Positions 3,875 to 51,860 are shown, counted from the stretch's first letter. The stretch is DNA of 63,930 bases from a virus (IMGVR_UViG_3300037714_000576:1-63930); one strand, 5' to 3'. Program-made: numbers and translations. The notes: a model not told the origin generated them from the letters alone.

Positions 3875-5539
3875 ATGATCTATCGCTCGCTCACATTGAG
3901 CACGGATTGGTTCCGTGTGACGTGGGATGTCGATCGGAGTGCTCCACCTAGTGAATGGGGCGCACTGTTGGCTATTCCCGGCATACGTTACTATCCGCGC
4001 GCACTCGAGATTCCCCGAACGGCATGGGACATGTCGCAGGTTGTAGATCTGTGTGCAGAGCTTGAGGTGACACCGCCGAAGCATTCAGACCGCTACGCAA
4101 CGATTGGTCTGTGGCAACCCTGGCAGAAGCCGCTTGCGCACCAACCTGTTGTCACGCAGCGCTTGTTAGAGACACATCGTGTGTTGCTTGCGGACGCAAT
4201 GGGTCTTGGTAAGACCCGAGCGGCAATTCAAGCCGCCGAAACGGTGCGCAGGCACATTCACCATGGCAAAAAGCCTGTGTTGATTGTCGGGCCCCTGCGT
4301 GTTCGCAGCACGTGGTTTCGTGAGCTCTTGGCAACGGGTGCGATTGAAAGCGCGAGTGAATTTTGTGCTCTGCGCACGCAAGATCAGCGGGATGCTTGTT
4401 GGAGTGACGACGCGCTTTACTATTTCATGCACTACGACATCGTGCATGTTTGGTGGCCGAAGTTCACGGCATTGCGGCCCTGTGTGACGATCTTAGACGA
4501 GGCGCACTACATCAAGAACGGACAGTCAAGGCGCGCGCGAAATGCCGCAATGGTCGCGCACATGGCCCCGTTTCGAATGCTGCTCACCGGTACTCCAATC
4601 GACAACGAGCCCAAAGATCTATACTCGTTGCTCGACTTTCTGAATGGACCGCAGACGTGGGGCTCACGAAGTCAGTTCCGCGTTCGTTACTGCGGCGCAT
4701 TCCGTGACACACACGGGTTCACTGATACCGGGCCGACGAACATGTCGGAGCTGCGAAGCCGGATGTCAGCCTATTACATTCGTCGAGAGCTTTCTGACAC
4801 AGCTGTAGAACTCCCACCGTTTACGCGTGAACTCACAGAGGTAGAAATTCCCGCAAGTCGCACGGTGAGCTACCAGCAACACACACGTCTGCTTTCGTCG
4901 CATGACATCCGGCGGCTTATTGACGCGATGCTGAGTGGTTCAGTGATGGGTTCGGATGTTGCACAAACCATGACAGCGCTCCGGCAGGTCACGAGCGAAG
5001 CAAAGATCTCCGCCACACTCGAGCTCGCGAGCGGGATTCTCGACGCGGATGGGGCCGTAGTCGTGTTCACATGGCAACGTTCGACCGCGAAGCAGCTGCA
5101 ACGCATGCTGCAGAGCTCGCGTGAGGCCATTTGCGGCGAGTTGGCGATCGACCGGCGTGAAGCCCTAATCGATAGCTTCCAGGCCCATGGCGGGGCGCTG
5201 GTGGCGACTTATGGCGCGCTTCAAGACGCTGTCACGTTGCATCGTGCACGTGCGGTGATCTTGCACGACCTTGATTATCTACCGAAAACGATGTTGCAGG
5301 CTGAGAAACGCGTGCATCGAATTGGCCAGGAATACGGCACGAAAAGCTATTGGATGGTGGCGAATCAGCTGTTTGATCGTGTGTTGCTTGCGGCATTACG
5401 TCGAAAAACGGCCGATACGGAGCTGATTCTATCGCTCCGCGAGCAAATACCGGAGCTTGGATCTACGGAGAGCCCCGAAGACATCTTTGCTTCTGGCATG
5501 GAACAGTCCATTACGGAGTGGCGCCAATGGAACATCTGA
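3875..5539 (+). CDS. SNF2-family helicase
   Basis: LLADAMGLGKT, DEAH, LTGTP, QAEKRVHRIGQ motifs. Confidence 0.93.
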   Translation: MIYRSLTLSTDWFRVTWDVDRSAPPSEWGALLAIPGIRYYPRALEIPRTAWDMSQVVDLCAELEVTPPKHSDRYATIGLWQPWQKPLAHQPVVTQRLLETHRVLLADAMGLGKTRAAIQAAETVRRHIHHGKKPVLIVGPLRVRSTWFRELLATGAIESASEFCALRTQDQRDACWSDDALYYFMHYDIVHVWWPKFTALRPCVTILDEAHYIKNGQSRRARNAAMVAHMAPFRMLLTGTPIDNEPKDLYSLLDFLNGPQTWGSRSQFRVRYCGAFRDTHGFTDTGPTNMSELRSRMSAYYIRRELSDTAVELPPFTRELTEVEIPASRTVSYQQHTRLLSSHDIRRLIDAMLSGSVMGSDVAQTMTALRQVTSEAKISATLELASGILDADGAVVVFTWQRSTAKQLQRMLQSSREAICGELAIDRREALIDSFQAHGGALVATYGALQDAVTLHRARAVILHDLDYLPKTMLQAEKRVHRIGQEYGTKSYWMVANQLFDRVLLAALRRKTADTELILSLREQIPELGSTESPEDIFASGMEQSITEWRQWNI

Positions 5540-5754: not shown

Positions 5755-6822
5755 ATGCCGAAGCTTTCATTCACAGTGCCGTTAGGAGGTCGGTTAGGCG
5801 TTCCAAAGGAACGGCCGTCTGTCTATCAAGTGCTGCAAATGCCGGATACTGGCGCTTCGCCGCGTGGCTCAACCTATCGCAAGTCACTTCTGCAGTGTCC
5901 ACACGAGCATGGTTTGTTGTATGAAATTGGACTTCGACCCGAGCAACCGTCCGAAGCATTGACAGTAGGTCTGGTCTTTCACTATGCATTGCAGCGGTAC
6001 TACGCGGAGATCCTTCGGTATCAACGGGAATTTGTGCGAAAATGGGTGGAGAAACACCCGGAAGATCCATGGGGATATCGCGGTCAAGACGCCTTTTTCT
6101 TTGGGAATCACTCGGATGCGGCCGCGGTTGCGTGGAATTCCATCCGTGATTTGGAGTCTGCGCCCGGCTATTTGGATACCTGGGAGGTTGTTTCTCGGGT
6201 AGTTGACCGATATTTGGACTTCTACAACCTTCGGGACCGCTGGGAAATCGTCGCTGTGGAAGTGACTGTGGAATATTACGGACGCATGTCCGGCAGTTTC
6301 GACTATACAGCCCGGCTCGATTTGGTTGTCGTTGACTGGTCTGACGGGTGTCTCTACAACGTAGAACACAAGACAGCCCGTTGGGTGTCGCAAGACTTGG
6401 TGGACTTCTACGATCTTGACCTCCAGATCCTCGGACAAGTCTGGCTCGCGACCAATTGTGTTGATTGGGCGAAAATGGGCCTCCCAATGTTTGGCGGCTG
6501 CAAGATTAACATTGCATCCAAGCAGAAGACTCCTGTATTGATCCGTCACGATGTGCTTCCGGGTGTTCAGGCACTACAAGCCTTTGAACGCATGGTTGGA
6601 CAGGCGGAGACACTCAGGGGGGTTCACGAAATGCTCGGTTGGCCGAAATCACTCGGCCACTGCGCAGGGTACGCACGCGGCTATTCAAAGTGTCAGTTCT
6701 ATGAGTTGTGTCGTGGGTACCCGCTCGAGACTGTCAAATCACTCAAGCTCTGGCGTGATCCGCCAAGTGGCTTTGTTTTCAAGAATCCAGACGCACCAAC
6801 AGTTGAGGATCACAATGTCTGA
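5755..6822 (+). CDS. PD-(D/E)XK exonuclease (Cas4/AddB-like)
   Basis: N-terminal QCP, GLVFH, E...RLDLV...EHKT, Q, C-terminal C...C..Y..LC cluster. Confidence 0.85.
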   Translation: MPKLSFTVPLGGRLGVPKERPSVYQVLQMPDTGASPRGSTYRKSLLQCPHEHGLLYEIGLRPEQPSEALTVGLVFHYALQRYYAEILRYQREFVRKWVEKHPEDPWGYRGQDAFFFGNHSDAAAVAWNSIRDLESAPGYLDTWEVVSRVVDRYLDFYNLRDRWEIVAVEVTVEYYGRMSGSFDYTARLDLVVVDWSDGCLYNVEHKTARWVSQDLVDFYDLDLQILGQVWLATNCVDWAKMGLPMFGGCKINIASKQKTPVLIRHDVLPGVQALQAFERMVGQAETLRGVHEMLGWPKSLGHCAGYARGYSKCQFYELCRGYPLETVKSLKLWRDPPSGFVFKNPDAPTVEDHNV

Positions 6823-7282
6823 CCCAACACCGGAAGAAGAGCTTGCAGTAAAACTTGCAGCTGCGTACGAATCACGGAAAGGTGATGGGCACTCGATGCC
6901 TGCAGCAATGCTGAAAGCATGGCGGGATGTGTGCGGTCCGGCTGAAGGTAAAGTTTTTGGACGGTTGAACCCCGCTGCTTTTGGGACGTCGCCGATTCCA
7001 CCACCGTCACAGTTCATGGAACCGGTAGTTGAACACTCGGTTGAGCCGGCAGTTGTGCGAACTGAATCGGAGCGGGTCTACGACGCATTGGAGGGTTTTG
7101 ACAGCCTTGCGGCGTTGAAAGGCGCACTGTGGTACTTCGCTGCAGGTACAGGTACAAGCCGCGGAGATGCAGACCGCCGCTCGTTAAGCGGCGTGTGTAT
7201 TGAAAGCATTGTGTTTCAAATCATTGGTGAAGCACCTGTGGATGTGGAGCGTCTTATTGTGGAAGTTACGTTGGAGGTCTGA
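6815..7282 (+). CDS. Hypothetical protein
   Basis: ATG after GAGG, overlaps upstream stop. Confidence 0.6.
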   Translation: MSDPTPEEELAVKLAAAYESRKGDGHSMPAAMLKAWRDVCGPAEGKVFGRLNPAAFGTSPIPPPSQFMEPVVEHSVEPAVVRTESERVYDALEGFDSLAALKGALWYFAAGTGTSRGDADRRSLSGVCIESIVFQIIGEAPVDVERLIVEVTLEV

Positions 7283-7284
7283 CC

Positions 7285-8085
7285 GTGTTCAAGACGCTCA
7301 ACGCAAAAGACCTTCAAGAGCCATGGACACGTTGGTTCCTGTACGGCGACACCGGTACAGGAAAGACGACGGCGGCTGCAACCTTTCCAAGGCCGCTCTT
7401 TCTTGTGCCCGTCAACGAGAAGTCCGTGACGGTGCTTGCGGGGTACAACGTCCCGTTTCTGCTGATCAAGGATTGGTCGTCTCCATTCGACGAGACAAAT
7501 GGTGTTGGCGGGATGAATCCGGTTTTGCAACGCATCGAAACCGAGTATAGACGTGATCCGAATGCGTTTCCGTACGATACCATTGTCGCGGAGGGGCTCA
7601 CGCACCTTGCGGAGCTCATCAAGGATGAGCTGACGCAGGGGTCGAAAGTGAGCATGGATGTACAGAAGTACGACAAGATAACAAGCTACTTCCGGAACAT
7701 TCATGCGCGGCTTTCGAATCTCGAGACACATCTAGTGTTTTGCGCGCTGGCTCAGCTGGATGAGAAAACGGAGCGGGGTGATGCGTATCTTTCGAAGAAG
7801 GTGCGCGAAGTGATTCCGAGCTCGTGTGATGTCTATGCGTACTTGACGGCCACGGACCGGGGTACGGACAAGAACGGCAATCAGTTGCCCAAAGAGCACA
7901 AGATGTATACGCAGTCGCGGGGTCAGTGGAAAGCGCGCTCCCGCTGCAAGCGGCTACCCGCGCTGATTCAGAACTTCAACTTCAACGACATCAAGCACCT
8001 GTTGTCGAATGTAATTGATGGTGCGCCGGTGGTGGTCGACACGCCAACGCAAGTCGATGGCGAGCCAGTAGCGGTTGGTGTGTGA
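7285..8085 (+). CDS. Sak4-like AAA_24 ATPase (recombination)
   Basis: LYGDTGTGKTT Walker A, YDTIVAEGLT Walker B-like; next to exonuclease. Confidence 0.82.
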   Translation: MFKTLNAKDLQEPWTRWFLYGDTGTGKTTAAATFPRPLFLVPVNEKSVTVLAGYNVPFLLIKDWSSPFDETNGVGGMNPVLQRIETEYRRDPNAFPYDTIVAEGLTHLAELIKDELTQGSKVSMDVQKYDKITSYFRNIHARLSNLETHLVFCALAQLDEKTERGDAYLSKKVREVIPSSCDVYAYLTATDRGTDKNGNQLPKEHKMYTQSRGQWKARSRCKRLPALIQNFNFNDIKHLLSNVIDGAPVVVDTPTQVDGEPVAVGV

Positions 8086-8129
8086 GTTTTGCGAGCGGAT
8101 TGTCCGCTCGGTTGTAAGGGGAGAATGCA

Positions 8130-8720
8130 ATGTCACAACTAGAACTCAACAAGGGCGACAACTTCATTTTTGGTGTCGACGTGTCGGCATCGATGCAGAC
8201 CACGGATTGCCCCGGCAATACGTCTCGAATCGAATACCTCAAGGAAACGGTGATCGCGTTTGCGACCGAAGCTTCGAAATGGGACGAAGATGGGATCGAC
8301 GTCATTTCGTTCGGTGCAAACGTGCGCACGGTGAAAGGCGTCACGGCCGAGAAAGCCAAGGAGATCATTGGCGCCTTCAAGGCAATCGAGGGCATGACTG
8401 ACACCGCAGCGTGCATCCGCGAGGCTTACAAGCTGCACAAGGCCGGTGGTTACCCGCAGACCGTGCTGTTCCTGGCCACTGATGGGGCGCCATCCGACCG
8501 CGAGGCCGTGAAGGATGCAATCCGAACGATCGCGTCCGAGCTCAAGGACGAGCACGAGTTTGCGATTTCGATTCTCACGGTCGGTGACATCGGTCCCGAT
8601 TTGCAGTCATTTCTGATTGAACTCGATGACAATCTCAAGGCGAAGCACGATATCGTTGATGTGAAGCATCTTGAAGCCGTCGACTTCATGGCTGCCTTTG
8701 CGGGCGCCCTTCACGACTGA
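8130..8720 (+). CDS. vWA domain protein
   Basis: MIDAS DVSAS...T...TDG; SD GGAG upstream. Confidence 0.88.
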   Translation: MSQLELNKGDNFIFGVDVSASMQTTDCPGNTSRIEYLKETVIAFATEASKWDEDGIDVISFGANVRTVKGVTAEKAKEIIGAFKAIEGMTDTAACIREAYKLHKAGGYPQTVLFLATDGAPSDREAVKDAIRTIASELKDEHEFAISILTVGDIGPDLQSFLIELDDNLKAKHDIVDVKHLEAVDFMAAFAGALHD

Positions 8721-8744
8721 ACGAAAGCAGAACGGAGAGTCATC

Positions 8745-8966
8745 ATGGAAAAGATTGCAGTTCGTGCGCCACACCGAGCGGACTTCGCGTTATCGCTTCG
8801 CGATATGGTGACTCTCCGTTCTGCGCCACCATTGCTATTCGCTGCAGCAACGTTGTTCTTGCTCACAGGCAATGTGATCGTGTCAGCGCTTGCTGTCACT
8901 GTCACTTCATACGCCCATGCGCTCTGGGCGCGGTTGATCGAAGCGAAAGAATCCTCGGGCGTCTAG
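8745..8966 (+). CDS. Small membrane protein
   Basis: Two hydrophobic segments, GGAG SD. Confidence 0.55.
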   Translation: MEKIAVRAPHRADFALSLRDMVTLRSAPPLLFAAATLFLLTGNVIVSALAVTVTSYAHALWARLIEAKESSGV

Positions 8967-8998
8967 CGGTAGGATTGGTTCGAATACGGCTCGGGGAA
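8951..8998 (+). pseudogene. tRNA-derived remnant lacking anticodon arm
   Basis: CGTCTAGCGGTAGGA D-arm joined directly to GGTTCGAATACGGCTCGGGGAA; similar to tRNA at 9105. Confidence 0.6.
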
Positions 8999-9002
8999 CG
9001 AA

Positions 9003-9087
9003 GGGCTCATTGGTATCTTCAGCATGTTGATTTCCTGATCGTCATTGCGTGCTGAATGGCTAGGTCCGATTCCTAGCGGGTCCACCA
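9003..9087 (+). ncRNA. tRNA-like RNA resembling the tmRNA tRNA-like domain
   Basis: Acceptor GGGCTC/GGGTCC with G3.U70, ACCA end, T arm CTAGG-TCCGATT-CCTAG, no D stem, 9-bp helix 9018-9026/9048-9056. Confidence 0.55.
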
Positions 9088-9104
9088 AAGGTTGAGAGTA
9101 GCGA

Positions 9105-9175
9105 TTCCCGATCGTCTAGTGGAAGGACGCCCGCCTCTGACGCGGGCTACGTCGGTTCGAATCCGGCTCGGGAAC
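9105..9175 (+). tRNA. tRNA-Gln(CTG)
   Basis: Full cloverleaf: TTCCCGA/TCGGGAA, anticodon arm CCCGC-CTCTGAC-GCGGG, T loop TTCGAAT; CCA not encoded. Confidence 0.9.
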
Positions 9176-9187
9176 TAGGGGGGTGTG

Positions 9188-9433
9188 ATGAGAGCGCAAA
9201 TCAAAGGACCTGTGTCGACGCGAGTACCGATTGAGATCGCTGAAAGCGATCGGCAGTGGTTCTCAACTGAGCGCGCTGCAGCATATCTTGACATGTCGGT
9301 CAAGGCGCTTTTGAAGCACGTAGAGCGCGGAAATATTGCCCCTGAGGCGTTCGGTCAGCGAGGCCGCGCACGAAGCCACCGATTCTCACGAGGGACGCTT
9401 GACGCGTTCATGCGGCGCGGCAACGCTGCTTGA
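9188..9433 (+). CDS. xis: Excisionase-like HTH protein
   Basis: WFSTERAAAYLDMS...RFSRGTLDAF pattern, directly upstream of integrase. Confidence 0.8.
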   Translation: MRAQIKGPVSTRVPIEIAESDRQWFSTERAAAYLDMSVKALLKHVERGNIAPEAFGQRGRARSHRFSRGTLDAFMRRGNAA

Positions 9434-9436
9434 ATT

Positions 9437-10645
9437 ATGGCGAAAACGACCAAATCAAGTGACGGTCTCAAGAAGATTGGCCCCGGAAAGTGGCTCGCAC
9501 GCATTGTTGGCCCTCGTGACGCAGACGGCAAACGAACAGTCGATACGGATCGGATCATCGAAGCGGATACGAAGATGCAAGCAATGCAACTCCGACAAAA
9601 GCTTTACGACGAACTCGTAGGTGACGATTCAGAGTGGACCGTTGAACAAACGGTCGCGGCTTGGTTGCCTACGGTGCACATCGGTTCACTGCCAGTTCGT
9701 ACGACGCACATCAATCGTTTCAAGTTGCGTTTCGGTGGGCGGCGTTTGAGTGCTGTGGCGCCTGTTGAAATTCAGCGTTGGCTTGCTGAGTTGGACTGTG
9801 GCGACACTACAGCGAACGCACATCGCGGTTCCGTTTTGGCGCTGTACAAATTTGCACGCCGTCAGGGTCGGCTGGTTGGCAAGAATCCGTTGCTAGAAAC
9901 TGAAAAACGCGAGACGTCACTGAGCACGGAAGAAGAGCTAGCGGCGCTGCATGCGCCTGTGAAGAGCAATGTGTTGATTGGGGACGCGTTGGTGCGCTTC
10001 TTCGAAGCACTCAACGAAGTCAATCCGGATTTGTACCCCGTTGCTAAAACTCAGTTGTTGCTGGGGTGCCGGTGGGCTGAAGTTGCCGCACTTCAGTGGC
10101 AGGACATTGACTGGGCGACGGGCGCGGTTTTGATTCGCCGCGGCATTGCGCGTCTGGGCGTTAGCGTCCCCAAAGCGCGGCGAAAGCGTGTCGCGGCGTT
10201 GGGGCCTATGGGGATTGCGTTCTTGCGGGGGCATTGCGCGGTCATGGAACAACGCAAGTGGCCTGGCTGGGATGTGTGGGTGTTTCCGCGGCCTGTCACA
10301 GGCCACCCCCGGCCAAAAGACACGTGGGCGTACAACACGGTGCACACAGCAGTTGCAGCCGCCCTGGCGGCTGCCCAAATCGACATTGCGAAGAACACGC
10401 ACGCCTTTCGCCACACCTACGTCACGCTCTCGCGCGCGCTCAACAGCGACGATGTGATGCGGGCTTCGGTCGGCCATTCGGGGGCGGGGTTGACCGAGAC
10501 GTACACCGACGACAGCCATCGCGTGGCGGAGGTCGTGTCGTTGGCAGAGGCCTTCGAAGCGCGGCTTCAAAACGCCGGTGGGGGTTTTGGTGGGGTTGGT
10601 TCAGAGAAAAGCCTGAAAAACAGGGATAAACGAACGAAGGTGTAG
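9437..10645 (+). CDS. int: Tyrosine integrase
   Basis: GCRWAE (R), HAFRH (HxxR), VGHS...TETY (H, Y); N-terminal arm-binding and core-binding regions. Confidence 0.93.
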   Translation: MAKTTKSSDGLKKIGPGKWLARIVGPRDADGKRTVDTDRIIEADTKMQAMQLRQKLYDELVGDDSEWTVEQTVAAWLPTVHIGSLPVRTTHINRFKLRFGGRRLSAVAPVEIQRWLAELDCGDTTANAHRGSVLALYKFARRQGRLVGKNPLLETEKRETSLSTEEELAALHAPVKSNVLIGDALVRFFEALNEVNPDLYPVAKTQLLLGCRWAEVAALQWQDIDWATGAVLIRRGIARLGVSVPKARRKRVAALGPMGIAFLRGHCAVMEQRKWPGWDVWVFPRPVTGHPRPKDTWAYNTVHTAVAAALAAAQIDIAKNTHAFRHTYVTLSRALNSDDVMRASVGHSGAGLTETYTDDSHRVAEVVSLAEAFEARLQNAGGGFGGVGSEKSLKNRDKRTKV

Positions 10646-10771
10646 ATCTCCTGGATCTACAGAGTGGGGATCTGAGGGGACACCTGTCGTGTTTTTGCTG
10701 AGGAAAATGCGACAGGTCTAGACAGGGATCGCCGGGTTTCTCCACCGCTGGTGGGGGAACTGGTGGGGGAA
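10577..10771. other. Putative attP: arm-type repeats flanking inverted-repeat core
   Basis: GGTGGGG pairs with 12-bp period at 10577/10589 and 10750/10762 (CTGGTGGGGGAA x2), inverted copy 10738-10746; IR TGTAGATC-N5-GATCTACA 10641-10661. Confidence 0.6.
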
Positions 10772-28340: not shown

Positions 28341-28765
28341 TCCTCGGGCTCCGGGGGCTCGGATGGCGCAGCCTCCCCGAACGTCGGCACCGGCGGGGGC
28401 GCAGGCAATTTGCCCTCAAAAGGCGGTGCAAGACGAGGTCGGATCGTGCTCGGAGGGCCGACCTGTTCGAGCTCGGCCGTGGGCGCAACCGCACGCCGTC
28501 GAAGGATCCCTTCGAGCACATCGAAACAGACGTTGAACGCGTGGGTTCCTACGCTCGAGCCGCGCGCGTCGCGGAGGCCACGCATGGAGATGTCGATCGA
28601 TCGGTACTCCACATGTAGTCCACTTGGACCACTCCACAGTGCACCGAGGGAGATCGCAGAGGCATCGTGGTACGGGGAAGTCACTGCGCGCAGGTCCACG
28701 TCAAAGACCTCTGCCGCAAGCTTCTGGAGCTCTTCGAACGTGATACGCGTAGTCGGCGGCGGCAT
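28337..28765 (-). CDS. Hypothetical protein
   Basis: Operon packing, Pro-rich tail. Confidence 0.6.
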   Translation of the reverse strand: MPPPTTRITFEELQKLAAEVFDVDLRAVTSPYHDASAISLGALWSGPSGLHVEYRSIDISMRGLRDARGSSVGTHAFNVCFDVLEGILRRRAVAPTAELEQVGPPSTIRPRLAPPFEGKLPAPPPVPTFGEAAPSEPPEPEE

Positions 28766-35229: not shown

Positions 35230-35282
35230 AGCGCTGGCACGCACACTGCCGGCGCTTTAGGCGTTTAAGGAGAGAATCGAAC

Positions 35283-35480
35283 ATGGCAAGCAATCGCAAA
35301 ATGACTTGGCACGTGGTTACCAGTCAGGGCCGCATCGTACTCGGTGTGTACGGTGAGGCCCTGCTTTCGCACGCACAGCGGCAAGCGGCCGAGGTCGAGC
35401 GCTCCACGGGCCTGCCTGCGTTCGTCGAACAGGTGCGCGCAACGTGGGCGCGCCGGCCCTTCGTGGGAGCGTGCATCTAA
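35283..35480 (+). CDS. Hypothetical protein (array)
   Basis: ATG follows repeat SD. Confidence 0.7.
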   Translation: MASNRKMTWHVVTSQGRIVLGVYGEALLSHAQRQAAEVERSTGLPAFVEQVRATWARRPFVGACI

Positions 35481-35800
35481 ATGAAGCGTCGCAACTCACA
35501 CTTGACCGAGTGGCGTTCACTGAGATCAACGATGACGTGCGCTTCAAGACGTTGACTGACTTGCGTCTCAGTGCGCCCGAGCGCGCACGCACGGCTGGTG
35601 ACTCCAATAAGGCCTACGACTTGATCGCGAAAAGCGCGATTTCGTTCGCCGCGGACGAAGATAATGCGATCTACAGGTTCGCATTTTGCGACAGTGACCA
35701 CGGTGAGGCCATTATCAGCCGCAAGTTGGGTGTTCCGGAGTGGTGATCAAGCGTTGGGTTCGACTCCCAGCGCTATACGCGTTTAAAGGGGAACGAGGAA

Positions 35801-36313
35801 ATGAACATTGACGACACGATCGCGATCGCACAACGCGTGCTCGATCATCTGCGCACAGGCTCGATCGCCGACGCGCAGTCGACCACAGAAATCCTTGCGG
35901 CTGAAATCGCAAATCTGATCGTTGCCGCCAATGTAGGCGAAACCGTCGCAACGCGAATTGCACGGATGCAGCTTACAGATATTAAAGAGACTCGACTGGA
36001 GACACTCACAATCGCCCATCCATTAGTGGACGATGCCACGTTTGCGCAGATCTCCAATGCCCTACGTGTGAGCCGCAAGGCCACGGTGATCCTACCCGCA
36101 CACCGGTACGAGAATCTCTCGCGCGGCAAGGGATGGGCCCGCAAAGGTAAGGGTACGTCGGCTGAATGGGGCGAACGCGTAGACGGCGGCTATCGCGTCG
36201 GGCCCGGTCGCTGGACTGTGGGCGCCAGTGATGGCTTTCACCGCAAGGACGAGGATGTGTGGAACGTCGAACACATCAAGATGGGCGATATGACCTGGAC
36301 AATCGCAAACTAA
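35801..36313 (+). CDS. Hypothetical protein (array)
   Basis: Bounded by repeats on both sides. Confidence 0.8.
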   Translation: MNIDDTIAIAQRVLDHLRTGSIADAQSTTEILAAEIANLIVAANVGETVATRIARMQLTDIKETRLETLTIAHPLVDDATFAQISNALRVSRKATVILPAHRYENLSRGKGWARKGKGTSAEWGERVDGGYRVGPGRWTVGASDGFHRKDEDVWNVEHIKMGDMTWTIAN

Positions 36314-36361
36314 GCGCCACGCCTCACACCGTGGCGCCAAACGCGTTTAAGGAGACCTCAC

Positions 36362-36559
36362 ATGGACCCAAATGCATGTCTCGAACGCTGGCGCCGCGCA
36401 CTGGCCGGCAAGAATCGCAGTGAAGCACGTGCGGCACGTATGGATCTGGTCGGTTGGCTTCGAAGCGGGGGTTTTTGGCCAAAAAACATCACAACCGCGG
36501 AGCTGGCAATCTTCAAGCGCTACCACGGCCTTGTGCCATCTGCTGCCGCAAACACGTAG
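36362..36559 (+). CDS. Small phage protein (MDPNACL...W...GGF.P)
   Basis: Bounded by repeats. Confidence 0.8.
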   Translation: MDPNACLERWRRALAGKNRSEARAARMDLVGWLRSGGFWPKNITTAELAIFKRYHGLVPSAAANT

Positions 36560-36618
36560 TTCCAAGCGTCGAGTTCAACTCTCGACGCCAAACGCATTTA
36601 AAGGGGTAGTCCAAAACC

Positions 36619-36918
36619 ATGACCGTGAATCCATTTCAGTCCGCGGTAGACAATAACATCAACTTCGAACACATGCGCGCGCTCGCACTGATCGTCCGCT
36701 GCGCACACACCGAAAGCGACGTGTTCACGGGTTGCCGCGTGTATCGTGCTCTCAGCGACTACACAGAACCAAGCATCAACGGCTATCTGGAGGGTTGCCA
36801 CTTCGAAGCGTGGGTAGACGATGGCATGATTCCGTATCTCGACGCGCTGCAAGGCAAGGCGGACGAATTCCTCACGAGCCACGTCGAGACGCAGCATCAC
36901 ACGCAGATCGATCGCTAG
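36619..36918 (+). CDS. Acidic hypothetical protein (array)
   Basis: Bounded by repeats. Confidence 0.75.
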   Translation: MTVNPFQSAVDNNINFEHMRALALIVRCAHTESDVFTGCRVYRALSDYTEPSINGYLEGCHFEAWVDDGMIPYLDALQGKADEFLTSHVETQHHTQIDR

Positions 36919-36974
36919 TTCCAGGCGTCGGGTTTGACTCCCGGCGCTGTAGGCATTTAAAAGGGGTGAACACA

Positions 36975-37952
36975 ATGGACATTCACGCTCGGCTCAAAAG
37001 CTTGCGTCAATCGCGAGAAATTCTAGGAATACGTACCAAGTTTCGTCGTTGGCTGCGGAGCGAAGCCGGGCTCACACGTATGCGCGAATGTGTCGAGCGG
37101 AGCGAACCACGCAGCACCCCGGACTTTCGTGGTCCGGGATTTCACTGGATCGATGGCAAGATGTATCAGGACCCGTGGACGCCGAATTGGCGCCCGGGAC
37201 TGGAATTCAACACCGGCTCTGGCCGTGCTGCGGAATGGTGTCATGTCGCCTACGAGCAATACGCACTGATTTGCCGTCTACTCCACCAGCACATGGGGTG
37301 GAGTGGCGATAAGGTGCGACTTGCGGGCAGGTCACTCACCCAAGCGGTAAACGGGGGCGGCCACACGTGGCAGCCACCAGAACCGTTCGTGCCCGTTACC
37401 GAGCTTGTGCGCGTTGCGGCACTGCCTCCCGCGTACCCTGGAAAATGGGAATACTGGAGCACAATCGAGGCGAATTCCAACCCCGCGCGAACATGCGATC
37501 CACAGACACTGCACAAGCTCGCGCAATGGCGTCTCTGGATTGCTCGTGTAGTTGCGCCTGCGTGGGGCGAGTTTATTCTCGCGCACTATCGTGCACGGCT
37601 GGCGAACGATCCTACGTACCGTACCCCCTCGATGATCGTAGGGGAGATCCGCCGTTTGCGTGGTGCAAAGGTCACAGACTTTCGCGGTTGTTCCGGCTGT
37701 CAGTACCTCGCGCGCATCGCGTTTTTGTCGACTGAAGAGCAGGATCAGCTGCTCGCACGCGCCGCGGAACCTACGCCCGTTACGCTGGCGAATGGGCTGC
37801 AGGGGATTTGCGTGCCGTTCGGCCTTTCGGCTCCGGCGGAATACGATCGTTGTCTGATTCTCGGTTTGAGCCACGAAATTCGCGTTCGCAGTGCGGATTA
37901 CGCTGCGCTCACCCCAGAACAGCTTACTGCGGTTATTCGCGTGGGTGTGTGA
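36975..37952 (+). CDS. Hypothetical protein (array)
   Basis: ATG after repeat SD; 325 aa. Confidence 0.75.
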   Translation: MDIHARLKSLRQSREILGIRTKFRRWLRSEAGLTRMRECVERSEPRSTPDFRGPGFHWIDGKMYQDPWTPNWRPGLEFNTGSGRAAEWCHVAYEQYALICRLLHQHMGWSGDKVRLAGRSLTQAVNGGGHTWQPPEPFVPVTELVRVAALPPAYPGKWEYWSTIEANSNPARTCDPQTLHKLAQWRLWIARVVAPAWGEFILAHYRARLANDPTYRTPSMIVGEIRRLRGAKVTDFRGCSGCQYLARIAFLSTEEQDQLLARAAEPTPVTLANGLQGICVPFGLSAPAEYDRCLILGLSHEIRVRSADYAALTPEQLTAVIRVGV

Positions 37953-38141
37953 TGACAGATCCGCACGAGATGGTGATGATCGACGGGCGCATCCGGGCTG
38001 TGTACACAGCCCGGACTGGACATCGGTACTACCTCGTAGACGGCGTACGTCGCTACTTGTGTGCGTAGGAGGGATGGCCGGTGAAATAGGCGCTGAGTTA
38101 GATTCTCAGCGCCAAAGGCGTTTAAGGAGCGCAAATTTCAT

Positions 38142-38441
38142 ATGCACGAAGTCGTAACCATCAACCGAGATGGCACAAACATCCGAGTATGGCTCACAGC
38201 GCCAGACTATGGCACCGCCAATCGATTTGCGATCGAACACGCGGCATTCGAACCGGGACAGATCACATACGTCCGCAATATCGAGACACCCAACACGTGT
38301 CAGGTCGCCTATGTGAGCCTTTCAGAGCTTTGCTATGGCAAGTTGTCCATGGTTGACTTCAGTTGCAACGTTCCGGTCGGGGAATTGCCTGAATTTGCCG
38401 CGAAAACAGTCGCTTGGTTCCGTGAGCACTGGAAATTGTGA
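38142..38441 (+). CDS. Hypothetical protein (array)
   Basis: ATG after repeat. Confidence 0.7.
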   Translation: MHEVVTINRDGTNIRVWLTAPDYGTANRFAIEHAAFEPGQITYVRNIETPNTCQVAYVSLSELCYGKLSMVDFSCNVPVGELPEFAAKTVAWFREHWKL

Positions 38442-38519
38442 TGCGACGATCGGGCCAAGAGCCTCGCACCTCGCGCGGAGCACACTCCGCGCCATAGGCG
38501 TTTAAAGGGGTGAGAAATC

Positions 38520-38813
38520 ATGGTGACGTACTACCAGATCGTGCAGGCCTACCGCGGCGTCGTGACGGCTGCTCGCAGACTCGACTATGCAAAGCGCTTT
38601 TCGAGCGCGCAAATACCCAACTTCAAACCGGACACGATACTGCTCGAAGGTACGCACGCGCCGATCGAAATTGGAGAGGCCCTGAAAGTGCTCCATGTCT
38701 CGCAATCGAGCTGCCGCCCGATAACGATACAAACGCACGGCTTCCGACCCATGTGCGCAACGTCAAGTTGGAGCGTACTCGCTAAGCGTCGAGTTAGACT
38801 CTCGACGCTTTAG
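38520..38813 (+). CDS. Hypothetical protein (array), possibly frameshifted
   Basis: ATG after repeat; reads into the next repeat hairpin. Confidence 0.55.
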   Translation: MVTYYQIVQAYRGVVTAARRLDYAKRFSSAQIPNFKPDTILLEGTHAPIEIGEALKVLHVSQSSCRPITIQTHGFRPMCATSSWSVLAKRRVRLSTL

Positions 38814-38835
38814 GCGTTTAAAGGGGTAGTGAAGT

Positions 38836-39192
38836 ATGGACGTCAACATCATGATTCGTGCGCTCAACAGGCTCACAGAACCGCATTTCACCAACGGGGG
38901 GCATCACATATGCACCGGTGATGCGTCGCTGGACGGTGCGATACTTGCTGGATGGTACGCAGCGAACGCGCTGGACAGTCAGCGCGAAACGGTCAAGCGC
39001 GTGTGTGATCTGTTGCGCGCAACGCAGGAGCTCAACAAAGTACAGCACGGTGTGATCCTGTCGGGTGAGCACCTGCGGATCACTGCGGCTGATTTGTGCG
39101 ATATCCTGAACGCGATTGCGTACGCCACCAGTCTGGTGTGCGACGAAATTCGCACCTTGGAGCTACTCAAGCTCAAGAAGCCGCGATCATGA
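38836..39192 (+). CDS. Hypothetical protein (array)
   Basis: ATG after repeat. Confidence 0.7.
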   Translation: MDVNIMIRALNRLTEPHFTNGGHHICTGDASLDGAILAGWYAANALDSQRETVKRVCDLLRATQELNKVQHGVILSGEHLRITAADLCDILNAIAYATSLVCDEIRTLELLKLKKPRS

Positions 39193-39370
39193 TCGTCGGG
39201 CTGCCAACATGCGCGCTTCTGCACCTACTACTACAAGAGATCTGGCGTGTCTTGTGCCGAGCGCTTTTGCGCCTGGTGATCAAACACGTTCCTGGTGGTT
39301 GGGTCGTCGCATTCACCTAAAGCGTCGGGTTTGACTCCCGACGCTTTAGGCGTTTAAGGAGCAAGAAGAA

Positions 39371-39919
39371 ATGAACGGTGACCACGAAATTTGGTGTGGG
39401 AATACGCTAGTGGAGACACTCCACTGGACGGGCCCGGTGTATGTTTTTCCAGAGGCACCCCCAGAAAGCGTATTACTTCAGAGGCGCGCCTTTCGCGATC
39501 AAGCGATCAAGCGTGCGTTCGAGCTCCGCGGCCTTGCGTACACACGCATGAATCCAAACTGGAAAGAGATCGCACATCTCGAATTCGACTGCAAAGAAGT
39601 CAACGAAACACAAGTTGCTGCCACAACCCCGATTGGGACCTTTCTGATCGCAGCGCGGCGCGTGAAAGCTGGAGAGCAAGCTACAGCGGTAGTAGTCGGC
39701 TCAAACCTTATCGGATACGGTGAGACGGCACGGGAAGATCAAATCAGTCTGCCTACGCGCCTTGTAGGGCGGCTGTTACCGCCGGAGCGGTCCGAGTGGC
39801 GCGAGTTGTGGCTGTTTCAGCCCACTTGCTTCGGGTACGCAGACGGTACAGTAAGTTCGTACCTCGGCAGCTATCCGCGCCGGATCACATGGGTACAAGA
39901 GCCGCATTGGCCGAAATAG
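39371..39919 (+). CDS. Hypothetical protein (array)
   Basis: ATG after repeat. Confidence 0.7.
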   Translation: MNGDHEIWCGNTLVETLHWTGPVYVFPEAPPESVLLQRRAFRDQAIKRAFELRGLAYTRMNPNWKEIAHLEFDCKEVNETQVAATTPIGTFLIAARRVKAGEQATAVVVGSNLIGYGETAREDQISLPTRLVGRLLPPERSEWRELWLFQPTCFGYADGTVSSYLGSYPRRITWVQEPHWPK

Positions 39920-39947
39920 GCGTCGAGGCACCGGGAGAAATACTGAC

Positions 39948-40127
39948 ATGGCACAAAAGAAAACTCGCAAGCTCAGACCCGTCGAGCCTGAACACTTCGT
40001 TGTACAGTTCAGTCTAGTTAGTGTGCGCGGACAATACTTCTACGCGCGCTTCAAAACGCGTCGTGCGGCTCTCCGGTTTGTCGATTTCGACGATCACGAT
40101 GTGATTGAAACCGCGTGCATCCTGTAA
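39948..40127 (+). CDS. 59-aa protein (not in ORF track)
   Basis: GGAG SD; MAQKKTRKLRPVEPEHF...; stop abuts repeat. Confidence 0.6.
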   Translation: MAQKKTRKLRPVEPEHFVVQFSLVSVRGQYFYARFKTRRAALRFVDFDDHDVIETACIL

Positions 40128-40173
40128 GCCCTGGGTTGGACTCCCGGGGCATTCGGCCGTTAAAGGGGTTTAA

Positions 40174-40839
40174 ATGCTCACTAAGGAACGCGCGCACAAA
40201 GCGTGGGAAGCACGCGGCGCAGAACAGACGGTGGAACACACGCTCACAAAAGACGAGTGCGCGTACGTCAAACTGATCTGGGATCACATGCCCGGCAATT
40301 CGACGTGGATGGACGCATTTTTCTTGATCATGAATGCGAAACGCGAAGGTCCACCAGAATTTCAGCCGCTCGACTTCGTGATCGTGAAAAACACGCACGG
40401 ATACGAAGCCTATCGTGGGCGCCGTGGCATGATTCGGAGCTATGTGCCATTCGGTAAGCTGTATGTGTATCTGCGGCCTGCGGGCCAAACATACGGCGCT
40501 GATGTTGCTCTTTGCATTATCGACGAATCGGACTTAGCCAGAGACACGCCGAGTCACCAAGACGTTGTGTGTCTGACAGGTGCGACACGCGAAAACGGCT
40601 GCTGGGGGACATCAGACGAAATCAAGCCTGGTGACATTGCGGACGAATCCTTGTATTGGGAGTGGTTAGAGGCTGTGCCTCCAGCCACACACAAACTAGA
40701 TTTGATGCAAATGGGTGAACCAATGGACCACAACGGTTTGGGCGACAAGCCACGGTTTCTCACAATGCAAAAACACGGCGAACAGTGGATCTATACTGGT
40801 ATTCGTGTTCGCGGTGAGCGCGTCCAGATCAAACAGTGA
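40174..40839 (+). CDS. Hypothetical protein (array)
   Basis: ATG after repeat; C-terminal VPP...MQMGEP.DH motif. Confidence 0.7.
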   Translation: MLTKERAHKAWEARGAEQTVEHTLTKDECAYVKLIWDHMPGNSTWMDAFFLIMNAKREGPPEFQPLDFVIVKNTHGYEAYRGRRGMIRSYVPFGKLYVYLRPAGQTYGADVALCIIDESDLARDTPSHQDVVCLTGATRENGCWGTSDEIKPGDIADESLYWEWLEAVPPATHKLDLMQMGEPMDHNGLGDKPRFLTMQKHGEQWIYTGIRVRGERVQIKQ

Positions 40840-40948
40840 AAGTCGACGAAAGCCGCTCGGGTAGATTTGTAGATCTGTATGTAGATCTATAAAGATGCCT
40901 CATGGGGCCTTTGTCTCCCATTACAAAGGAAAAGAAGGGTAAGGAAGT

Positions 40949-42127
40949 ATGGCACTGAAAGCACAAGTCAAAGTTAGCGCCGTCGATCGGCCGAAAACGC
41001 TTACGCGCGCCTCGCAACAGTGGCGCGAACGCCCGGCAGACGAGTGCTTCGAAACACTGGACGCGTTGCTCGCCGCCACGCGCGGTCATCACCAGCGCGC
41101 CGTGCAGGTCAAAAAGCCGTTCCACGAAATCCGCGTCACGCATGGCACGAACGATGAAATCTACCTTGTGGGACAGGGCGGCAAGATGATCCGCCCGAAC
41201 CACTGGGCCTTCGGCCAGCTGTGCCAGCGCGTAGGTGCGCCGGCCAGCTACCTTCGCGAGCTCCCGGCACACCTGGCTGTGGAGAACCTTCGGCATGGTC
41301 TGGAGGCCGCCACCGACGAGGAAGCCGCCGTTCTGCTGGTTGAGAAGCCCGAGCAAAGTGGCGATATCGCCACGCTGCGCGCCATGACGAGCGACAAATA
41401 CACGCGCGTGTGGAATGACGAAGTCGCAGAAGCACTCGTCGCTTTGCGCGAGCGCGCGCCGTCGTGGCAGTTCCCGGAGCCTTTCCGCACTGTGGGCGGC
41501 ACGAAAGCCAATGCGTGGGGTAAGGCCGACGGCAAGCAGATCCCGATCGCGTTCGCGTCGGATCACGACATGTTCGTATTCCTGTGCGACTACGAACACG
41601 GGATCGACGTCGGGGGAAGCGTGCTTGCGCGCGGGTTTTTCGTCGAAAACAGCGAAGTTGGGGATGCGTCCTTCAAGGTGACCATGTTCCTGTTCGATTT
41701 CGTTTGCTCGAACATCCTGGTGTGGGGTGCGCGCAACGTGGCGGAGATCAAGTTTAAGCATGTTGGTGCGGTTCGCGATCGTGTGCTCGCGCGTGATTCG
41801 AAGGTGCTCAAGGCGATCAATGACTATTCCAATCTGCGCGCCAGTGAGCAGACAAGCCAAATCCTGAACGCCCAGAACGTTCTGATCGGCAAGGATGATG
41901 CTGAGGTTTTGTCAACACTGTTCGGGCGCAAGTCCTTGCAGCTCGCCAAAGGCGACATCCAAGCCGCGCAGCTCGTCGCGAACACGACGCCCCGCTACGG
42001 CAACCCACGCTCGGTCTGGGCAATCGTCAACGGTCTGACTGAAGTCTCTCAGCGCACGACCTACACAGACCAACGTATCAAGTTGGATCGCGCCGCGGGT
42101 TCGTTGCTCGAAACCTTCGCATTCTGA
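40949..42127 (+). CDS. DUF932-family protein
   Basis: HWAFGQL..VGAPASYL, LRA.TS..Y.R, ASDHDMFVFL, NSEVG, VCSN. Confidence 0.85.
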   Translation: MALKAQVKVSAVDRPKTLTRASQQWRERPADECFETLDALLAATRGHHQRAVQVKKPFHEIRVTHGTNDEIYLVGQGGKMIRPNHWAFGQLCQRVGAPASYLRELPAHLAVENLRHGLEAATDEEAAVLLVEKPEQSGDIATLRAMTSDKYTRVWNDEVAEALVALRERAPSWQFPEPFRTVGGTKANAWGKADGKQIPIAFASDHDMFVFLCDYEHGIDVGGSVLARGFFVENSEVGDASFKVTMFLFDFVCSNILVWGARNVAEIKFKHVGAVRDRVLARDSKVLKAINDYSNLRASEQTSQILNAQNVLIGKDDAEVLSTLFGRKSLQLAKGDIQAAQLVANTTPRYGNPRSVWAIVNGLTEVSQRTTYTDQRIKLDRAAGSLLETFAF

Positions 42128-42202
42128 TTCGAGCCGCAGATCTACAAACCAAGCCTTACGGCTCACACCGGGGGGCTTTGGGCGTTTAAGGGGTAGTACC
42201 AA

Positions 42203-42472
42203 ATGGCATCAAACCGTCTCACGTCGGATCTGCCGCCTCCACCAGAGCAGATCGATCCTAACGACAGAATTTCACCAGAGCTCCGCAAATGGCTCAATAC
42301 CGGCTGGCGCGCGCAATGTAGTGGTTGCGGACTGCGTTGGAGCAGTCACCAGCGACCCGGGGACACAAGGTGTCCCGACTGCAACGACTTGCCTTCACTA
42401 CCGTCGAGCCTGGCAGCGATCCAATCGATGCCGGGCCCTGCGGACAGCATATTTCGACCTATGAAAAGGTGA
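42203..42472 (+). CDS. Small zinc-finger protein
   Basis: CSGC...CPDC; ATG after repeat. Confidence 0.65.
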   Translation: MASNRLTSDLPPPPEQIDPNDRISPELRKWLNTGWRAQCSGCGLRWSSHQRPGDTRCPDCNDLPSLPSSLAAIQSMPGPADSIFRPMKR

Positions 42473-47087: not shown

Positions 47088-47387
47088 GTGAATATGACAG
47101 TTCGATTTAACGGACCGACCGAATGCAAATGGCCATGTCCTTATTGTGGCACATTGCTTATCGGTGCGACGGCGATTCTCACAGTCAATCCTGGTGTGGG
47201 CCTCGAATTGCCCGGACCGGCGGCGCCCAAAATGAATGACATCACAATCTGTGGTGTATGCCATGAGATTCTTCGTTTTGGACACACAGAGTTTCACACG
47301 ATCAACCTGCAAACGCTCACCGAAGCACAACGCACAGCAATTTTGCTCGTACAAGCAACCGTACAGTTCGGGGCTGCAAAGAAGTGA
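47088..47387 (+). CDS. Zinc-finger protein
   Basis: CPYCG...ICGVC. Confidence 0.6.
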   Translation: MNMTVRFNGPTECKWPCPYCGTLLIGATAILTVNPGVGLELPGPAAPKMNDITICGVCHEILRFGHTEFHTINLQTLTEAQRTAILLVQATVQFGAAKK

Positions 47388-47394
47388 GGAAACC

Positions 47395-48222
47395 ATGCAA
47401 TTCGATGAATGGCTACGAAAGAACAACTACCAGGCGAGCACAGCCAAGCAGACACTGTCCGATCTACGACGTGTTGGCAATGCGAATGCCATGGCCGACC
47501 CCGGCGTCATCAATGCCCTGCGTCGTTACATCGCGTACGCGGTCCAATACGACGTCCGCGACGAATACACGGAAGCTGCTGCACAACATGGGATTGGTGG
47601 CGTCAAGCGCCTCCCGCACGTCAAAGACACAACGCGGAAACTCGACGCTGTCAGTTTCGAGGATGACGACTGGAGCGAGCTCGTGGAGGCGGTCAAAGGC
47701 GCCTCCAAACCGACCGATCAAGTACTGTGGGCGATGGTCACGACGGGGCTCCGCGTCGGGGATACACTCCGCGTCGAACGCGGGGCGCTCGCGGGGATCC
47801 TTGAGTCCTCGAACCCCATCATTCACATGGAAGTGAAGGGCGGCATATACCGGCCCGTGCCGATTGGCGTGCGCGAACCGTGGGAGGCGCTCGCACGCGG
47901 GGTGCTGGCGGGCAAAGCTGCGAATGTAGCCCAGTACGTCTGCGCAGGGTCTGTGGGGCCCGATGTGCGTGGCAGCTGCGCCTATCACCGCGTGAACAGG
48001 CGGTTGAAGACACTGCAACGCCAGCTCGGACTGTCCGGTCGAGCCAACACGCACCGAATTCGCCGCACGATCGCGGTCCATACCCTGGAAGAAACTGACA
48101 ACATCGTGGCAACGCAGCAGATGATGGGGCACAGAACGATGCAATCGACGTTGAAATACGTTGACGAGCGAAATCATCGGGGTACAGCCCGGTTGCAGCG
48201 CAAGCTCGCAGGCCTGGAATGA
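47395..48222 (+). CDS. Second tyrosine recombinase (XerC/D-like, no arm-binding domain)
   Basis: TGLRVGD, KGG, HRIRRT, MGH...STLKY. Confidence 0.9.
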   Translation: MQFDEWLRKNNYQASTAKQTLSDLRRVGNANAMADPGVINALRRYIAYAVQYDVRDEYTEAAAQHGIGGVKRLPHVKDTTRKLDAVSFEDDDWSELVEAVKGASKPTDQVLWAMVTTGLRVGDTLRVERGALAGILESSNPIIHMEVKGGIYRPVPIGVREPWEALARGVLAGKAANVAQYVCAGSVGPDVRGSCAYHRVNRRLKTLQRQLGLSGRANTHRIRRTIAVHTLEETDNIVATQQMMGHRTMQSTLKYVDERNHRGTARLQRKLAGLE

Positions 48223-51586: not shown

Positions 51587-51860
51587 CCGAGCCAGTATAT
51601 CGCAGCCTTTGGTCTGCAGGGTCGTCAGTCACCAAAGGAGTTGGTGGGTCGGCCACCTCGTCTTCGTCTTCGTCTTCGTCTTCGTCTTCGTCTTCGTCTT
51701 CGTCTTCGTCTTCGTCTTCGTCTTCGTCTTCGTCTTCGTCTTCGTCTTCGTCTTCGTCTTCGTCTTCGTCTTCGTCTTCGTCTTCGACGGCATCAGCATC
51801 AACGTCGATTTCATCGGCAGCATCGATTTCGAACGCGTTGAATTTCTCGTAGCTAGTCAT
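51570..51860 (-). CDS. Extremely acidic (ED)n protein
   Basis: ATGA-coupled in operon; flanks of the repeat are also acidic. Confidence 0.7.
   Translation of the reverse strand: MTSYEKFNAFEIDAADEIDVDADAVEDEDEDEDEDEDEDEDEDEDEDEDEDEDEDEDEDEDEDEDEDEVADPPTPLVTDDPADQRLRYTGSGGNVA
51661..51786. repeat. Perfect hexamer tandem repeat (TCTTCG)21
   Basis: Counted directly. Confidence 0.97.

Follow-up and report, generated by a model that had tools for sequence, protein, structure and literature searches.

An 85-nt phage element shaped like the tRNA-like domain of tmRNA may be a rearranged tRNA-Ala relic

Does a phage contig carry, just upstream of its excisionase and integrase genes, a tmRNA that lacks its mRNA domain, or a tRNA that merely looks like one? 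This question is raised by an 85-nt element (E2; positions 9003–9087, + strand), which a preliminary description had likened to the tRNA-like domain (TLD) of a tmRNA without the mRNA part, and for which it had proposed a role as an alanylatable decoy.

The window, by which we mean the whole stretch of 63,930 bases analyzed here (IMGVR_UViG_3300037714_000576), is recorded in IMG/VR as a ‘provirus’ with an estimated completeness of 74% and has a GC content of ~0.56. E2 is part of a small RNA cluster, and the genes on both sides of this cluster all lie on the + strand and represent a phage replication/recombination module according to Pfam and PHROG. On the 5′ side, they encode a SNF2 helicase (3875–5539), a PD-(D/E)XK exonuclease (5755–6822), a Sak4-like protein (7285–8085), a VWA protein (8130–8720) and, directly before the cluster, a 73-aa ORF (8745–8966). 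The cluster itself comprises a tRNA-Gln-like remnant (E1; 8951–8999, +), E2 and an intact tRNA-Gln(CUG) gene (E3; 9105–9175, +), with spacers of 3 nt between E1 and E2 and 17 nt between E2 and E3. Nine nucleotides further on, and 98 nt downstream of E2, follows xis, an excisionase-like HTH_17 gene (9185–9433, +; Pfam PF12728, PHROG excisionase), and then int, which encodes a tyrosine integrase (9437–10645, +; Pfam PF00589, phrog_1). We found 22 homologs of this integrase at 47–72% identity, the closest being P0002–P0005 (66–72%), and its gene lies on a 79,136-base parent contig, 15 kb of which were trimmed from the present record. On the 3′ side of int, the module continues with a DUF669 SSB-like protein, a RecD-like helicase, ThyX and PolA+UDG. 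Among the window ORFs scanned, none was recognized as SmpB, AlaRS, a tRNA-repair protein or another tRNA-related protein, and a scan of positions 8000–9700 found no promoters or terminators. Elsewhere, the window contains a second tyrosine integrase gene (47236–48222; Pfam PF00589, phrog_216) and a long (TCGTCT)n hexamer array of ~23 units (51658–51795).

E2 is predicted to fold with an energy of −32 kcal/mol, compared with −22.8 ± 3.3 kcal/mol for 200 shuffled sequences (z −2.77), two of which were equally stable. In the MFE structure, the acceptor stem is built from pairs 1–6/76–81 (G1-C, G2-C, G3.U, C4-G, U5.G and C6-G), which join the 5′ strand GGGCUCA (9003–9009) to the 3′ strand GGGUCC, the latter being followed by the discriminator A and an encoded CCA (9078–9087). 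Positions 7–15 are unpaired; these nine bases comprise A7 and the segment UUGGUAUC (9010–9017), a putative stemless D-arm remnant that includes the GG of the elbow and stays unpaired in the ensemble as well. A long helix of 10 bp follows (16–25/45–54; 9018–9027 with 9047–9056), topped by a weaker inner hairpin of 5 bp (26–30/35–39). The T arm (57–62/70–75; 9059–9077) has a stem of 5–6 bp and the loop UCCGAUU, and the ACCA tail is unpaired. With a 5-bp T stem, A7 would lie opposite C66, while in the MFE structure, G57 pairs with C75 and the acceptor and T stems contribute 6+6 rather than 7+5 of the 12 stacked pairs. The pair probabilities are 0.98–1.0 for the acceptor stem, 1.0 for the T stem, 0.77–1.0 for the long helix (at least 0.97 for nine of its 10 pairs and 0.77 for the outermost) and 0.66–0.69 for the inner hairpin. 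The features on which the preliminary description was founded, i.e. G1-C, G2-C, G3.U, the A with CCA, the T arm, the stemless GG segment and the long helix, are all found in the sequence and fold at 9003–9087, and the G3.U70 alanine identity element that it emphasized is accompanied by A73 and G2-C71.

In its architecture, E2 equals the tRNA-like domain of a tmRNA that lacks the mRNA part, but it does not match the tmRNA family models. When we searched the window with the Rfam models for tmRNA (RF00023), mitochondrial tmRNA (RF02544) and tRNA (RF00005), E2 remained unmatched at E ≤ 10, and a 95-nt scan of E2 gave no RF00023 match either. The only Rfam matches are partial and of 15.5–16.2 bits; they come from the permuted and beta-proteobacterial tmRNA models and cover the T arm and the CCA tail, whereas an ordinary tRNA-Ala reaches 28.3 bits on RF00023. 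Likewise, six of seven ARAGORN modes, which included relaxed thresholds, mitochondrial and intron settings, returned no call for E2; the 70% threshold yielded a 116-nt ‘tRNA-Asn with intron’, which we judged implausible. The sole call by ARAGORN, or by Rfam at its gathering threshold, in this region is the tRNA-Gln(CUG) gene at 9105–9175, which scores 54.4 bits on the Rfam tRNA model.

How would a genuine TLD-only tmRNA behave in these searches? Such an RNA is described for mycobacteriophage DS6A, and strong inhibition of tmRNA, perhaps through titration of SmpB, is reported for a molecule of a similar kind (PMC4131195, PMC11915505); the inhibition by a TLD-like molecule is described as independent of whether it can be charged (PMC4131195). 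DS6A is the only phage named with a TLD-only tmRNA in these two sources. We located its gene at 28478–28560 of JN698994, where 83 nt match RF00023 over the whole model with 43.2 bits (E 6.5e-14). In addition, a degenerate scan of IMG/VR for RNAs of 80–104 nt with Ala-type ends gave at least 117 stretches. Judged by acceptor pairing and folding, at least 17 of the 80 loci that we examined are of the DS6A design, representing at least 16 distinct sequences of 80–88 nt (L113, L114, to which L182 is identical, L118, L119, L136, L139, L142, L148, L149, L153, L156, L160, L165, L166, L176 and L187). All 11 of the viral loci tested match the Rfam tmRNA model at the same coordinates with 30.8–74.5 bits, six of them above its cut-off of 47 bits, and none of the 16 viral sequences was called correctly by ARAGORN. 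DS6A-type TLD-only tmRNA genes therefore appear to be common in uncultivated phages, as far as such a scan can indicate. For the decoy proposed earlier, this means that there is precedent in DS6A and at least 16 further phage genes, but the tmRNA membership of E2 itself was not borne out.

Two side observations were made on these viral contigs. L115, L127, L179 and L180 contain 80-nt tRNA-Ala(UGC)-like genes with an unusually long D stem of 7 bp, and L153 has a match to the type II hammerhead ribozyme (974–1038, − strand; 44.1 bits, above the cut-off) at a distance of ~1.2 kb from its TLD-only tmRNA-like gene.

Compared with this class, E2 deviates at the junctions between its helices. The RF00023 consensus has ..CGAC before P2 and GGAC/..AC before the T stem, and a ..AC linker before the T stem is found in 15 of 17 TLD-only sequences; in E2, ..AUC precedes the long helix and UGG stands in place of the linker. 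Its D-like loop has 8 nt, whereas this loop measures 11–14 nt in DS6A and its 16 viral counterparts. The tmRNA features that E2 does possess include a stemless GG-containing D-loop analog followed by a helix and a T arm with a 7-nt loop, as well as G1-C72, G2-C71, G3.U70, the discriminator A and CCA, a set that is shared with tRNA-Ala and does not discriminate between the two. We also built a model of the viral TLD-only class from 17 sequences (R1). E2 is its top full-length match in the window with 25.5 bits (rough E 7e-4), but R1 scores the tRNA-Ala genes described below even higher (27.9–43.8 bits), and hence says nothing on whether E2 belongs to the class. A second R1 match (42171–42244, 18 bits), which covers a ribosome-binding site and the start of an ORF (42203–42472), is taken to be spurious. 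Weak partial R1 matches also occur in an intergenic repeat, six to eight copies of which lie at 35245–42205 between genes of unknown function; its unit consists of a GC-rich hairpin with a loop like that of a tRNA T arm (GUUCGACUC type), followed by a conserved ribosome-binding stretch that resembles TTTAGGCGTTTAAGGAG.

A different affiliation emerges from the ends of E2. We derived a 25-nt pattern with 21 specified bases from its T loop, 3′ acceptor strand and CCA, and found 17 matches in 185,579 species genomes, where we estimate that ~0.3 would be expected by chance. Sixteen of these are the 3′ ends of tRNA-Ala genes with GGC or CGC anticodons, which are called by ARAGORN and score 45–62 bits on the Rfam tRNA model, and the remaining one is a 3′ fragment of a tRNA-Ala. 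All 17 come from Patescibacteria assemblies, a distribution that may partly stem from the pattern itself, which demands an encoded CCA and the GGGUCC acceptor strand, and should not be read as a host assignment. Within the window, the 25-nt 3′ end of E2 has no second match at up to three mismatches (0 expected in 100 shuffles). At the other end, the first eight bases of E2 are identical to those of one of the matched genes, the tRNA-Ala(GGC) of L002. Judged from its sequence, E2 is tRNA-derived, because the 3′ signature was found only in or beside tRNA-Ala genes. The UCC T loop, which had been regarded as a hint of decay, loses this meaning, as it is present in 16 bona fide tRNA-Ala genes. These Patescibacteria genes (L002–L018) are unusual in their own right in that they encode CCA and have C at T-loop position 55, where U is near-universal. 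In L016, which is a Microgenomates assembly, the 3′ tRNA-Ala fragment ends in CCA and lies 33 nt behind an intact tRNA-Ala(GGC) (6873–7003); this arrangement is the one typically left where an element has integrated at a tRNA-Ala gene.

The long helix, the most tmRNA-like part of E2, can likewise be read as tRNA-Ala. By eye, five of its outer pairs (17–21/49–53) lie four bases 5′ of the T stem and are in the same register as the anticodon stem of the 74-nt tRNA-Ala genes that bear the signature and have a 4-nt variable loop, with the pair outside them corresponding to positions 26:44. The 3′ strand of this stem (GCUGA) is contained in that of the long helix, and the seven bases beside it, AUUGCGU (9044–9050), would represent an anticodon loop in which U33 precedes UGC (9046–9048), an anticodon for alanine, within the A32...U38 frame known from the tRNA-Ala(GGC) genes. 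On the 5′ side, the helix runs on past the anticodon stem as A-U, in positions 22–23, which would again correspond to A32 and U33. The simplest description is therefore that the long helix would be the anticodon arm of a tRNA-Ala, whose loop is split between U33 and U34 by 20 putatively inserted bases (9026–9045) that hold the inner hairpin. Such a split would provide eight of the 10 helix pairs for free and require chance for only two, and with eight pairs inherited from the anticodon arm, the helix would no longer call for selection. There are two reservations: by our own rough estimate, the underlying pattern N-U-N-G-C-R-N occurs by chance once in 128 cases, and G37 is unusual in tRNA-Ala.

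We consider it very improbable that E2 is instead a true TLD-only ssrA gene of the tmRNA family that has diverged beyond the Rfam model. It would have the same architecture, and its sole Rfam matches are to tmRNA models; these matches, however, cover only what is common to all tRNAs, while E2 agrees with tRNA-Ala genes in its acceptor sequence, its T loop, its 4-nt linker and the register of its helix, and the 11 viral TLD-only elements tested have all remained recognizable.

In place of a D arm, for which no stem can form, E2 has UUGGUAUC. By eye, this segment resembles U8 and the 3′ part of a D arm, aligning with the ..UGGUAUUAC portion in the signature-bearing tRNA-Ala genes, while nothing corresponds to the 5′ strand of the D stem. 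The origin of the putative insertion is less clear. Twelve of its bases (9032–9043) are identical at 11 positions to the 5′ end of the neighboring tRNA-Gln gene (9105–9116; repeat D5). This is borderline, given that we estimate one such repeat by chance in a region of 900 nt, and gives only a hint of a possible recombination between tRNA genes. As an archaeal bulge-helix-bulge intron, the insertion was rejected, since the fold has one bulge only and the neighboring tRNA-Gln has a U1-A72 pair, as is typical of bacteria. Likewise, we dropped as unsupported the idea that the helix contains a tag reading frame of two codons.

Could E2 still work as an odd tRNA-Ala(UGC) with an oversized D region, refolding on the ribosome or after processing? 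By eye, an alternative fold can be drawn with an anticodon stem of five positions (four of them paired), the loop A-U-UGC-G-U and, after it, a variable loop, T arm and acceptor stem of normal form. In the prediction, this fold is 11 kcal/mol less stable with a pair probability of 0.0, the UGC anticodon being sequestered within the long helix; furthermore, no D stem is possible, and neither relaxed ARAGORN searches nor the Rfam tRNA model call E2. D-armless tRNAs and short tRNA introns are not known from bacteria. We therefore regard a working tRNA as scarcely credible.

The neighborhood of E2 offers a context in which a tRNA gene may have been rearranged. The remnant E1 was identified by alignment to the tRNA-Gln gene, the repeats D1/D2, a 3-mismatch match and its fold (z −1.5). 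It lacks 24 nt of that gene, namely the anticodon arm and the variable loop, its T stem is damaged, and the ORF at 8745–8966 has its stop codon inside E1. The differences between its acceptor stem and that of the intact tRNA-Gln are paired, which indicates that E1 descends from a different, once functional gene.

The attP cores of tyrosine integrases commonly carry the 3′ half of a tRNA, over 30–45 bp and often from the anticodon loop onwards (PMC10865867). The 3′ half of E2 (9046–9087) would fit such a core, present or former, although we find this unlikely. It lies where attP sites of this kind are usually found; against it, the T stem of E2 recurs in none of the 17 signature matches among 185,579 genomes, and tRNAs are also missing upstream of related cassettes. 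The integrase-alignment search gave one IMG/VR locus (L019) and 80 metagenome loci, of which only L019/L020, L022, L023 and L025 extend upstream of a related cassette. In these four distinct relatives, whose integrases are 31–52% identical, no tRNA was found upstream of the cassette, and only xis and int are common with the window. The intact tRNA-Gln(CUG) next to xis-int could itself mark an attP site, or could be a phage tRNA of the ‘tRNA-dependent lysogeny’ type (PMC10865867). In this contig, the phage has probably not integrated through a site adjacent to xis-int, because the attP region lies unsplit in the middle of a record classified as a provirus.

Searches for homologs of E2 offered little variation to weigh. 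Neither an exact 28-mer nor a degenerate 25-mer of its 3′ end matched any viral contig, blastn of positions 8000–10700 against 50,697 phage records gave tRNA-Gln matches only, and tblastn with PolA and Int against phage records gave nothing close. A search of viral contigs for related loci with Int, P0002 and PolA returned no relatives, and no E2 homolog was found in IMG/VR, INPHARED or the GTDB genomes. Among the public sequencing runs listed as containing the stretch, none was of RNA. Identical pieces of the E2 region occur in two sediment metagenomes, and a freshwater run contains a single 151-nt contig (depth 2) with C9023U and a GGG run at 9003 that is shorter by one G. The former change retains its helix pair (C-G to U.G) and would be structure-neutral, the latter would weaken the first acceptor pair, and the two together are too little to weigh.

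Taken together, we favor, with a probability of roughly 0.57, the reading that E2 is a rearranged tRNA-Ala(UGC) relic at a phage tRNA/att locus, whose TLD-like shape would be a by-product; this value includes the share that we assign to the 3′ half serving, or having served, as an attP core. The ancestor would have been a tRNA-Ala(UGC) gene within the small cluster of tRNAs and remnants directly upstream of xis-int. Of this gene, E2 would retain the encoded CCA, the T arm, the anticodon stem and an intact acceptor stem with G3.U70 and A73 as alanine identity elements, whereas the D stem would have been lost. The ~20 bases gained inside the anticodon loop would turn the anticodon stem into the longer helix of E2, within which the UGC anticodon is hidden. 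The resemblance to the tRNA-like domain of tmRNA would then be a by-product of these two lesions in a tRNA rather than a sign of common descent. Most likely, such a molecule would no longer work in decoding, while its well-kept 3′ half (9046–9087) may still matter as DNA, forming a present or former core of the attP type. For AlaRS, a minihelix of acceptor and T arm is a sufficient substrate if it contains G3.U70; under any of the readings, E2 RNA would be expected, if transcribed, to be cut out by RNase P and charged with alanine. The rearranged relic agrees with the tRNA-Ala-type ends, including the eight bases shared with L002, with the helix register, with the lack of a tmRNA-model match, in which E2 is unlike DS6A and the 11 viral elements, and with signs of tRNA decay or rearrangement next door, i.e. 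E1 and the 11/12 tRNA-Gln copy within E2, as well as with the position 98 nt before xis. A decayed ordinary tRNA, which the preliminary description had itself named as the opposing possibility, is largely what these ends, this register and the missing tmRNA match amount to.

Several observations nevertheless speak against a mere relic. The stems are still paired (acceptor 6/7, T stem 5/5, anticodon stem 5/5), the C9023U change of the one low-depth contig keeps its pair, and the two lesions remove exactly those parts that are missing from a tmRNA tRNA-like domain, so that selection is possible. Moreover, the anticodon loop was assigned by eye, with the chance level and the atypical G37 mentioned above, the 11/12 repeat is about what chance would give, and size and architecture are as in the phage TLD-only genes of 80–88 nt. 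Some of these points would suit an expressed, alanylatable RNA which is derived from tRNA-Ala and acts like the DS6A decoy, a possibility that we hold to be the main rival, though an unlikely one. RNase P would excise this RNA from the early transcript, and AlaRS would attach alanine to it. Having no usable anticodon, it would sequester SmpB (or EF-Tu/AlaRS), or occupy stalled ribosomes without adding a tag, and dampen host trans-translation during infection. Its size and design would equal those of DS6A (83 nt) and the at least 16 viral genes, with GG loop, T arm, ACCA and a helix capped by ~20 nt, and the AUUGGU at the start of its loop is common to L113, L114, L118 and L166. A stable fold, a CCA that is encoded here but not in the tRNA-Gln beside it, and tight packing with tRNA genes, comparable to that of L119 at 2 nt from a tRNA array, also favor a decoy, which according to PMC4131195 would not even need to be chargeable to inhibit tmRNA. 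It is disfavored by the missing tmRNA-model match, which all TLD-only elements tested do give, by the absence of the ..AC linker and of the GAC-type motif before the helix, by the shorter D-like loop, and by the failure of R1 to separate E2 from tRNA-Ala. Furthermore, homologs were not found in IMG/VR, INPHARED or GTDB, the neighbor E1 is plainly a remnant, and no SmpB or tRNA-related protein was recognized in the window. In its evolutionary form, this idea would have the phage turn a tRNA-Ala into an alanylatable mini-RNA without anticodon and D stem that interferes with host ribosome rescue during infection; we find this doubtful, also in the wider version in which the mini-RNA would converge on DS6A-type TLD-only tmRNAs or interfere with another alanyl-tRNA-dependent process.

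What follows from E2 depends on which reading is true. If it is a relic, it adds one more non-canonical tRNA-derived sequence beside an integrase and calls for caution, as two indels in a tRNA-Ala gene would suffice to produce a look-alike of the tmRNA tRNA-like domain that no detector calls. If it is a decoy, phages can reach the TLD-only design from a tRNA, and E2 would offer a small, testable RNA for the minimal needs of SmpB and AlaRS; as a mini-RNA converted from tRNA-Ala, it would show that decoys of the tRNA-like design have arisen a second time, independently. In either case, the by-product of our search may matter more, namely the TLD-only tmRNA genes, of which we found at least 16 distinct ones among 80 loci.

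E2 can be compared with several known systems. With ordinary bacterial tRNA-Ala, it has in common G1-C72, G2-C71, G3.U70, C4-G69, A73, CCA, the T arm, the anticodon stem, the 4-nt variable loop and the A32...U38 loop frame (as in tRNA-Ala(GGC)); it differs in the absence of a D stem, a ‘loop’ of 27 rather than 7 nt, A7 opposite C66 and its failure with RF00005 and ARAGORN. Small RNAs inside phage tRNA clusters are familiar from phage T4, whose stable ‘species 1 and 2’ RNAs are non-decoding and processed together with the tRNAs; they offer a parallel to E2, with unrelated sequences. Integrating elements are known to leave non-canonical tRNA fragments and pseudo-tRNAs (PMC9897764). E2 resembles these in its position beside a tyrosine integrase and an excisionase, in the truncated tRNA copy nearby and in a 3′ half that is intact from the anticodon loop onwards, the fragment in L016, 33 nt behind its tRNA-Ala gene, being comparable; unlike plain 3′ fragments, however, it has kept both acceptor strands and a complete tRNA-like shape. 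In jakobid mitochondrial tmRNA and in plastid forms of ~65 bp, the tag reading frame is absent (PMC11915505). E2 is similar to these in being a tRNA-like domain without a tag reading frame, but they are organellar, mostly permuted and co-occur with SmpB, and RF02544 does not match E2 at E ≤ 10. Finally, the DS6A-type TLD-only genes share with E2 the length of 80–88 nt, a 7-bp acceptor stem with G3.U70 (six of the seven pairs formed in E2), A73, a C-C/U-A tail, the stemless GG loop, a helix capped by ~20 nt that replaces the mRNA domain, and the T arm. They differ in that E2 has the GGGCUCA acceptor strand, the UCCGAUU T loop, an 8-nt D-like loop, no ..AC linker, no Rfam tmRNA match and a helix in register with the anticodon stem of tRNA-Ala, including a remnant of the UGC loop. 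Both are phage-borne, and their setting can be similar: the DS6A-type copy in L119 lies 2 nt from a tRNA array, and E2 is likewise packed among tRNA genes.
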